Positions 22,175-23,358 of a stretch of DNA of 64,000 bases are shown here, one piece after another. The position numbers and the translations under genes were made by a program. The DNA lies in NCBI RefSeq assembly GCF_029227855.1, contig NZ_CP074356.1, one strand, 5' to 3'. Each line of letters begins with the position of its first letter. Position 1 is the stretch's first letter. The notes beneath the pieces are model-generated. The model was not told where the DNA came from. It saw only the letters and a program-made list of their open reading frames with translations, and ran no database searches. The stretch is from Escherichia coli (GTDB taxonomy: Bacteria; Pseudomonadota; Gammaproteobacteria; Enterobacterales; Enterobacteriaceae).

Positions 22175-22753
22175 CAGTACGATGATGAATCGGGGCTGTG
22201 CTATAATCGTTATCGTTACTACGAGCCGTTACAAGGGAGGTATATTACACAGGACCCGATTGGGTTAAATGGGGGGTGGAATTTATATAAATATCCGCTG
22301 AATCCAATAAATTATGCAGATCCTCTTGGCTTAGCCGTAGATATAAACCACTTCCCAGTCAACGAAGACATACGAAATTATGCAGAGAAAGTTTGGAATA
22401 ATCCTAATATCATTACAATTGGAACACATGGTGATCCTCAATCAGTATATGATGAAAATTATAATAAGATAGATGTCAAGACATTAGCTAATGAGGTTCG
22501 AAATCATCCTAAATTTAAACCTGGAATGTCAGTAAGACTGTTATCCTGTAATACAGGAAAAGGAAATAACTCTTTTGCACAGCAATTGGCAGATGAACTA
22601 GGTGTGAGAGTCTATGCTCCTGACCAATATGACTGGTACTATTCAAATGGTAAGGTAGAGCCTTGGGGAGGATTCTATGATGCAAACAATCAATTGCAAA
22701 TGGACACGAATCAGCCTGGACATGAGTTTACATTCAAGCGAAGGAAACCATAG
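22175..22753 (+). pseudogene. Rhs C-terminal segment (DPIGL junction plus ~150-aa variable toxin domain) separated from core by in-frame stop
   Basis: Same frame as the core; reads [53 protein letters not shown] then an AT-rich unique domain; no start codon of its own until 22526. Confidence 0.7.
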
Positions 22754-22755
22754 GT

Positions 22756-23358
22756 ATGAGGTATTTTCTCTTTATATTTATAACAATCCCCCTTATCTCT
22801 GGAGGTCATATGAGTAATGATAGCGAAAAGATAATATCAACATATTCGCTCAATTTTTTATCACCAGATGATGTGAGGAAAGAAGAACTTAAGGCATCAC
22901 AAGGTGATAGTGATGCTGCATTTAAATTGTACAAATATTACCTTTTTTGCGAGCCAAAATCATACAGAAAACAGCACGAATGGTTAATAATATCGGCAAA
23001 TAATGGAAATGCTATAGCTCAATATAACTTATCAAGAGAACTTGAGTCAGAAGGAAAAGTAGATGAATCAATACAATGGCTGAAAAAATCAGCGGAACAT
23101 GGTAATAATTATGCACAATATCAGATATCAAAATATTTATTAAAAATAGGTGATATTAGAGGATCGGAATATTATCTAAACTTATCTGCGGATAACGGAT
23201 GTGTATTTGCAATAAAAGATATTATCAAAAATATGATGGATAGTGGAAGGTACGATGACGCCCTCATTTGGGTTGAAAAATTGAAAAAATTGTATCCTGA
23301 CACAAATACCGAACTTTACATACAAAAAATAACGCAGAAAAAAAAGCAATCCAAATAA
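22756..23358 (+). CDS. Sel1-repeat protein; putative cognate immunity protein of the Rhs C-terminal toxin
   Basis: Starts 2 nt after the toxin stop; alternative start at 22807 has a strong GGAGG RBS; Sel1-like repeats (GNAIAQYNL..., GNNYAQYQIS...); AT-rich. Confidence 0.6.
   Translation: MRYFLFIFITIPLISGGHMSNDSEKIISTYSLNFLSPDDVRKEELKASQGDSDAAFKLYKYYLFCEPKSYRKQHEWLIISANNGNAIAQYNLSRELESEGKVDESIQWLKKSAEHGNNYAQYQISKYLLKIGDIRGSEYYLNLSADNGCVFAIKDIIKNMMDSGRYDDALIWVEKLKKLYPDTNTELYIQKITQKKKQSK

Follow-up and report, generated by a model that had tools for sequence, protein, structure and literature searches.

A 64,000-nucleotide (nt) stretch of Escherichia coli DNA (contig NZ_CP074356.1, here called the window) carries an rhs gene whose last part is AT-rich and is followed, 2 nt after its stop codon, by a small open reading frame (ORF). 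The question raised by this locus is what the AT-rich segment encodes, and whether the small gene is its partner. A sequence-only reading proposed a polymorphic toxin that it could assign to no known toxin family, together with a cognate immunity gene. The analysis described here makes it likely that the 3′ end of the rhs gene, which lies on a tRNA-Asn island, forms a module of a clan CD toxin and an exported immunity protein of the Sel1/tetratricopeptide repeat (TPR) type, with the toxin switched off in the window. The parts of the locus are the following.

18572-22171, plus strand: rhs, 1,200 codons ahead of a premature stop; DUF6531, RHS repeats and most of the core
22172-22174, plus strand: premature amber codon TAG replacing Gln1201, from the translation; CAG in strain N3
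22175-22333, plus strand: final 53 Rhs-core codons (QYDDESGL...DPIGL...DPLGL) with the autocleavage junction, severed from the ORF by the TAG
22334-22753, plus strand: C-terminal (CT) toxin domain, 139 amino acids (aa) plus stop (coding 22334-22750, stop 22751-22753); predicted minimal clan CD (C80/DUF4347-like) cysteine peptidase
22756-23358, plus strand: candidate immunity gene, 200 aa, ATG 2 nt past the toxin stop; five predicted Sel1/TPR-like helix pairs

Predicted fold of the C-terminal domain

An AlphaFold2 model of the CT domain, built on the family alignment, has high confidence values (predicted local distance difference test, pLDDT, 97.6; predicted template modelling score, pTM, 0.90). 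His32-Gly33 are found right after the strand of residues 26-30, and Cys72 right after the strand of residues 66-70; the two strands are adjacent. The His-Gly pair precedes the Ser-Cys pair, and each is located just past a beta-strand. His32 is part of the motif IITIGTHGD (codon 22427-22429), and the codon of Cys72 is at 22547-22549. An independent Foldseek run ranked 14 C80 domains first, followed by caspases, CHAT and legumain. A caspase-type alpha/beta/alpha fold, i.e., a clan CD fold, is thus obtained with confidence by two independent methods. Following the fold searches, interpretation of the motifs as papain-like, alpha/beta-hydrolase or P-loop was abandoned.

The sequence-only reading had pointed to a His-before-Cys order as in caspase/clostripain peptidases. 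The model, the Foldseek ranking and the profile searches described below bear this out. Conservation was assessed in an alignment of 55 homologs with a mean column identity of 32%, in which His32, Cys72, Leu85 and Gly106 are invariant and Gly33 (98%), Gly75, Val93, Ala95 and Pro96 are nearly so. The His/Cys motifs are thus more than a chance occurrence, and the assignment of His32/Cys72 as the dyad of a predicted peptidase of the caspase/clostripain type is supported by these data.

Family relationships of the C-terminal domain

Searches of Pfam, NCBIfam and PDB sequences with the CT domain gave no usable match, and only the Rhs-core part was recognised; the 53 residues before the domain match NCBIfam RHS_core (1.2e-24) and TIGR03696 (1.9e-18). 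In Pfam the window domain has no match at E ≤ 1, PF11713 (Peptidase_C80) and PF14252 (DUF4347) included. A PDB profile search with the CT family alignment also gave no usable match, and a sequence search with the DUF4347-like unit of a giant homolog gave no link to the PDB. A word-indexed search found few relatives of the domain, and an exhaustive phmmer search found 1,268 cluster representatives at E ≤ 1e-3. The family thus has at least 1,268 cluster representatives, yet no Pfam or NCBIfam model, and for this reason current annotation reads merely "RHS core" or "hypothetical".

Family membership nevertheless leaves a trace in Pfam when the 55 members are scanned singly. Weak matches to DUF4347 (14/55) and Peptidase_C80 (7/55) are found, as well as to C13, CHAT and C14, so that the sub-threshold matches are mainly to clan CD families. 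A profile of the family recovers proteins labelled PF14252 or PF11713 by Pfam at E of about 1e-20, and some of these matches clear the gathering score. The gathering scores of PF11713 and PF14252 are not reached by the window domain; family members are sub-threshold and giant homologs pass, with P0013 and P0014 clearing the DUF4347 cut-off. Taken with the model, these matches predict that the CT domain is a small peptidase and a divergent member of the C80/DUF4347 branch of clan CD. The view that it belongs to no known family is revised accordingly, and its length is 139 aa rather than the approximately 150 aa first given.

The position of the domain within proteins was determined for the best 156 matches. 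It is present once in 134 of these, and in 130 of the 134 it ends within 45 aa of the C-terminus, often immediately behind a P-x-G-L junction. The remaining 22 proteins have 700-6,600 aa and hold 2-5 internal copies. In the giant actinobacterial protein P0013 the DUF4347-like units alternate with PI3/PI4-kinase-like units, and P0014 begins with a WXG100-like domain. This architecture suggests multi-effector toxins that may be cut by their own caspase-like repeats.

C80 domains have a conserved basic pocket, by which inositol hexakisphosphate (InsP6) activates them. No conserved pocket of this type was seen in the CT family alignment; only one column is mostly Lys/Arg (≥50%), and the pI of the domain is 6.1. 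The absence of basic residues conserved for InsP6 binding is in keeping with a bacterial target, not a eukaryotic one.

The Rhs core, the junction and the amber codon

The rhs product matches Pfam RHS_repeat (1.4e-62, in 11 stretches), DUF6531 (2.5e-20) and RHS (1.9e-14). The locus encodes the RHS/YD repeats and the core ending in DPxGL...PxxxxDPxGL that are characteristic of Rhs polymorphic toxins. The abrupt AT-rich turn after DPIGL...PLGL, first noticed in the sequence-only reading, is seen in the base composition: the GC fraction is 0.587 at 21900-22199 but only 0.367 at 22200-22499, and it remains within 0.29-0.38 up to 23399, as against about 0.59-0.66 in the core. The next ORF lies within this AT-rich region, with its ATG at 22756. 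A compositionally distinct, variable CT region is thus followed at 2 nt by a gene that, as described below, is a partner in seven lineages.

N-terminus, core and toxin are not encoded by one unbroken ORF in the window. At 22172 the window has T where N3 has C, and the N3 ortholog, with 1,393 aa, is uninterrupted. The sequence-only reading, which starts at 22175, directly behind this codon, is silent on it. The toxin cannot be produced as part of Rhs in the window because of the amber codon, and the first in-frame ATG, GTG or TTG after the TAG, at 22526, lies beyond His32. Thus the toxin domain is inexpressible here except by rare read-through, and the rhs toxin gene of this window is a pseudogene. 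Among the about 90 complete genomes, of 5,426 searched, that have the junction, none matches the 211-nt junction of the window perfectly; the best match is 99.5%, with one mismatch.

The downstream gene and its probable partnership with the toxin

The protein downstream is named "tetratricopeptide repeat protein" or "sel1 repeat family protein" in RefSeq. Its AlphaFold2 model displays 10 helices that form 5 stacked antiparallel pairs (pLDDT ≥90) with a period of about 32-33 aa. Foldseek matches to the model are Sel1-repeat proteins (Oxalobacter, LpnE, c5321, SEL1L, LceB) and consensus TPRs, with E from 4e-5 to 1e-3. All Pfam matches are sub-threshold (Sel1 16.3 vs 30.7 bits, TPR_2 25.4 vs 27, and TPR_19), and the period is more TPR-like than the 36-44 aa of canonical Sel1 repeats. 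The Sel1-like repeats of the sequence-only reading therefore hold as a five-pair solenoid with Sel1-repeat proteins among its structural matches, but not at the level of the Pfam Sel1 model or of the repeat length. The structure predictions that this reading had suggested for both proteins gave a clan CD fold and a Sel1/TPR solenoid, respectively.

A word-indexed search with the immunity protein returned only near-identical E. coli proteins. Examination of the loci of toxin homologs showed a homologous partner directly after the toxin in seven lineages, namely E. coli, Rheinheimera, Delftia, Variovorax and three metagenomic ones (a marine cassette array and two further Rhs loci), with pairwise BLASTP E from 1e-6 to 1e-14; this is a small sample, and a locus search with a narrow alignment gave six loci. 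The pairing with a polymorphic toxin that was first proposed from the arrangement of the two genes is consistent with this conserved synteny, and the identification of the downstream gene as a candidate cognate immunity gene is supported. On marine metagenome contigs (L005-L007) the toxin is found as an orphan 169-aa cassette with a small partner gene, arrayed with Imm26 and pentapeptide-repeat genes.

Site of action

The protein from 22756 opens with a hydrophobic N-terminus, MRYFLFIFITIPLISGG, and a signal peptide is predicted at 22756-22809. The RefSeq start, chosen by the Prokaryotic Genome Annotation Pipeline (PGAP), is at 22810. Six of the seven homologous partners start with an export signal, which is of the Sec type in E. 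coli, Rheinheimera, Delftia and the marine locus and of the lipobox type in L015 and L014 (LAGC, IFAC). The envelope location suggested for a protein translated from 22756 gains weight from these signals. Export of an immunity protein has been taken as an argument for a toxin that acts in the periplasm when delivered by a type VI secretion system (T6SS) (PMC11148199), and by this usual argument the exported partner points to the periplasm as the site of toxin action.

The same toxin-immunity pair could also act in the cytoplasm, with 22810 as the true start, the hydrophobic N-terminus untranslated or unused, and a cytosolic target as for Cpe1. A start at 22810, which would yield a cytosolic protein, has a strong GGAGG Shine-Dalgarno sequence 4 nt upstream in addition to the choice by PGAP. 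The Variovorax partner has no signal peptide, and the short 163-aa branch of the family (L017) has a Zn-ribbon partner without export signal. The cytoplasm is also where many of the characterised Rhs toxins act. Set against these points, beside the export signals of the six partners, are the BLAST alignments of the homologs, which extend through residues 1-20 of the window protein; the Delftia protein begins MMRYIFILF, compared with MRYFLFIF here. The 22756 ATG itself has AAGGA 10 nt upstream and follows the toxin stop at 2 nt. The toxin has only one Cys, as would suit an oxidising compartment, although this is weak evidence. Thus the 22756 start is favoured over 22810, in spite of the better Shine-Dalgarno sequence of the latter, because the alignments span the first 20 residues and the Delftia N-terminus is alike. 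Cytoplasmic action is considered rather unlikely, and action in the periplasm with the partner starting at 22756 is proposed with moderate confidence. The forms from 22756 and from 22810 might both be made.

A periplasmic site would also be consistent with a clan CD fold that has other chemistry, i.e., a transpeptidase or amidase whose substrate would be the stem peptides of peptidoglycan or the attachment of lipoproteins. Legumain and GPI (glycosylphosphatidylinositol) transamidase carry out ligase-type reactions, and the cell wall is a frequent target of the known T6SS toxins of the periplasm. The closest relatives of the domain (C80, gingipain, CHAT) are, in contrast, endopeptidases, and no pointer to a peptidoglycan substrate was seen in this analysis. 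This chemistry is considered improbable, and proteolysis remains the favoured reading.

Distribution and decay in Escherichia coli

In all, 5,426 complete E. coli genomes were searched. Toxin and partner are found once each in 91 of them, with at least 99% identity, and a distant DNA search revealed no diverged paralogs in E. coli. One of the carriers is PCN033, a strain with a functional T6SS (PMC6730261).

The amber codon of the window is one of three independent lesions that destroy the toxin. In the swine enterotoxigenic E. coli (ETEC) K_EC180 (L019) a G-to-A change at position 4803, which corresponds to 22636 of the window, turns the codon of the near-invariant Trp101 into TGA; the same annotation is found in 9 other ETEC genomes among the 60 matches listed. 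A one-base deletion in the downstream ORF of K_EC180 alters only its last few codons, and the ORF is open. In an O157:H16 strain (L020) an IS1A (4611-5308) interrupts the toxin sequence about 110 nt after its start, and rhs carries a frameshift; here too the downstream ORF is open, as it is in the window. An immunity gene would be expected to persist in this way while the toxin is lost time and again.

These observations also bear on the possibility that the CT domain is not antibacterial, but is either a processing peptidase and no more or an effector directed at eukaryotes, like Tce1, Tce2 and OspB, with the Sel1/TPR gene encoding an unrelated exported protein. The nearest structures are indeed those of host-directed self-processing domains and of Tce1, most caspase-like domains of polymorphic toxins are releasing peptidases, and giant homologs hold the domain as internal repeats. 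Tce1 and Tce2 are Hcp-loaded, lack an immunity gene and did not poison E. coli; yeast is sensitive to Tce2 (PMC13323088). In the present family, however, the domain is the last in the protein, so that nothing lies beyond it to be released. The homologous partner gene is kept adjacent across distant lineages, also in the orphan cassettes of the arrays with Imm26; the partner is retained when the toxin decays; and the conserved InsP6 pocket is absent. This non-antibacterial reading is regarded as very improbable.

The island

The module lies in the E. coli chromosome on an island of approximately 10.5 kb between a tRNA-Asn gene (13034-13109) and yeeN-amn-shiA. Its borders and its integrase are as follows.

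13034-13113, plus strand: tRNA-Asn gene plus attL, the gene (13034-13109) as found by ARAGORN
13094-13113, plus strand: attL, the tRNA 3′ end CCAGTCAGAGGAGCCAAATT, left direct repeat, exact 20 bp
13169-14532, plus strand: P4-type tyrosine integrase, pseudogene; overlapping ORFs 13169-13861 and 13711-14532
23647-23666, plus strand: attR, exact 20-bp copy of 13094-13113, right island border

Pfam matches to Arm-DNA-bind_3, Phage_int_M and Phage_integrase are spread over the two integrase ORFs, and the N3 copy is annotated as frameshifted. The N3 island shows 98.7% identity to that of the window. Besides the integrase, the island holds a few small genes, the single rhs gene and the ORF that follows it. 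Scans for promoters and terminators gave a number of sites not above that in shuffled sequence.

Four tRNA-Asn genes are present in the window (8801-8876, 11210-11285, 13034-13109 and 37969-38044). At least one of them is an integration site, and another hosts the same island in a different strain; in the O157:H16 strain the island adjoins cbl-nac, at another tRNA-Asn. Outside the island, the minus strand holds a 2,685-aa ORF at 29674-37731; in N3 the corresponding product carries the annotation of an Ig-like domain protein. Positions 40465-62802 are occupied by a segment of a lambdoid prophage with exonuclease VIII, large terminase and portal genes.

Proposed mechanism

In an intact allele such as that of N3, the Rhs shell would enclose the 139-aa CT domain, which would be freed by autocleavage after DPLGL. 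Homologous Rhs genes adjoin VgrG, PAAR and DUF2169 genes; this neighbourhood and the family itself suggest delivery by a T6SS. The freed domain would be a stripped-down clan CD peptidase, closest to DUF4347 and to the C80 domains of MARTX, TcdA and TcdB, and would act by proteolysis through His32/Cys72. Most likely it would poison target bacteria by cleaving a substrate in the envelope or periplasm. Synteny and signal peptides suggest that the exported Sel1/TPR-like solenoid would bind the toxin in the periplasm and neutralise it there. In the window the change of CAG to TAG at 22172 ends Rhs 53 codons ahead of the toxin, so that no toxin is made; the intact immunity gene may protect the cell against relatives with a live toxin.

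Several findings, in addition to those given for the cytoplasm, sit uneasily with this proposal. The PAAR-like N-terminus of the Rhs protein is called by eye and from the literature only, and a Pfam scan of this N-terminus did not detect a PAAR domain. There are no T6SS genes within the window. Elsewhere in the family the partner is unrelated, being a lipoprotein in the Bacteroidales branch and a Zn-ribbon protein in that of L017. Co-folding of the pair, also suggested in the sequence-only reading, was carried out with a fused toxin-linker-immunity model in AlphaFold2; the domains are confident but no confident interface was obtained (pTM 0.56), a result that speaks neither for nor against direct contact. 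Moreover the closest studied T6SS relatives, Tce1 and Tce2, are apparently anti-eukaryotic (PMC13323088).

A wider claim may be stated: that no antibacterial toxin family with a paired immunity protein was known before on a C80-like clan CD fold, and that the protease of this one is minimal, InsP6-independent, active in the periplasm on an envelope substrate and blocked there by an exported Sel1/TPR solenoid. Literature searches returned no experimental study of a clan CD toxin paired with an immunity protein. In this full form the claim is tentative, quite possible but somewhat short of probable.

Implications

The system is not of a new kind, since the toxin class was predicted in 2012, and the family has no database model; the partner type and the probable compartment had not been described for the class before. 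The self-processing domains of toxins with a C80-type fold are drug targets in Clostridioides difficile and Vibrio. If the present reading is true, the control and inhibition of the fold could be studied in a simple form, a 139-aa version that has a bacterial target and no InsP6 switch. A periplasmic toxin of the caspase type, if true, would bring a fold new to T6SS warfare, and probably a target new to it as well. The repeated loss of the toxin with the immunity gene kept offers a natural experiment on module decay in E. coli.

Comparison with known systems

The class to which the CT domain comes closest by description is Tox-Caspase, defined by Zhang, de Souza, Anantharaman, Iyer and Aravind in 2012 by a caspase-like fold with conserved H and C. 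Its members are tied to RHS repeats and T6SS, form repeat arrays in Streptomyces giants, and are mostly releasing peptidases, with some terminal toxins (PMC3482391). The likeness lies in a caspase-like alpha/beta H...C domain that stands last in RHS-repeat, T6SS-linked proteins (as in the 130 of 134 single-copy homologs) and recurs as internal arrays in actinobacterial giants. The domain thus fits this class, which was defined only in silico and is experimentally uncharacterised, as a member not characterised before. The difference is in the partner: the immunity protein listed for the class is Imm36, from actinobacteria, whereas the window partner is an exported Sel1/TPR solenoid and gives TPR/Sel1 signals only.

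Peptidase C80, as in RtxA, the MARTX toxin of V. cholerae, and in TcdA/TcdB of C. difficile, also has His-Gly and Cys after adjacent strands, and some members of the present family match PF11713. The window domain differs in size (139 aa vs about 200-250 aa), has no Pfam C80 match in its own sequence, and belongs to a family without conserved basic InsP6 residues. It is also terminal and accompanied by an immunity gene, whereas C80 is an internal self-processing domain of a host-directed toxin.

DUF4347 (PF14252) and the P. aeruginosa H3-T6SS effectors Tce1 and Tce2 (PDB 9qpe) have, like the window domain, a C80-like fold with a His/Cys dyad, and are T6SS-delivered, as is proposed for the window domain. 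The DUF4347 cut-off is cleared by giant homologs of this domain and not by the window sequence itself, which stays under the Pfam threshold. Unlike Tce1 and Tce2, the window domain is Rhs-borne and has a conserved partner gene.

Helical Sel1/TPR solenoids similar to the window partner are known among T6SS immunity proteins with Sel1-like repeats, i.e., PA5086-5088 for PldB and z5018 ("RhsAI") of enterohaemorrhagic E. coli (EHEC); PldB toxins, in distinction, are phospholipases. In EHEC EDL933 the tail of RhsA was modelled on 3HO6 and was read by the authors as inhibition of a GTPase; the TPR/Sel1 gene z5018 is located downstream, and a PAAR protein of a T6SS island, z0268, was modelled on 3fzy (PMC7216683). 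The structure 3HO6 is the protease domain of TcdA. RhsA/z5018 and z0268 may be related modules; for RhsA/z5018 no match to the window pair was found at the DNA level, and the similarity is a lead only.

The toxins Cpe1, EvpQ and TsaP resemble the system described here in that cysteine protease domains are carried on PAAR, VgrG, Rhs or CdiA proteins next to an adjacent immunity gene. They are papain-like, of clan CA, with Cys before His plus Asp, and their targets are the cytosolic GyrB and ParE (PMC12136450). In the searchable literature all characterised interbacterial cysteine-protease toxins are papain-like. The window domain has, in contrast, another predicted fold, another catalytic order and probably another compartment.

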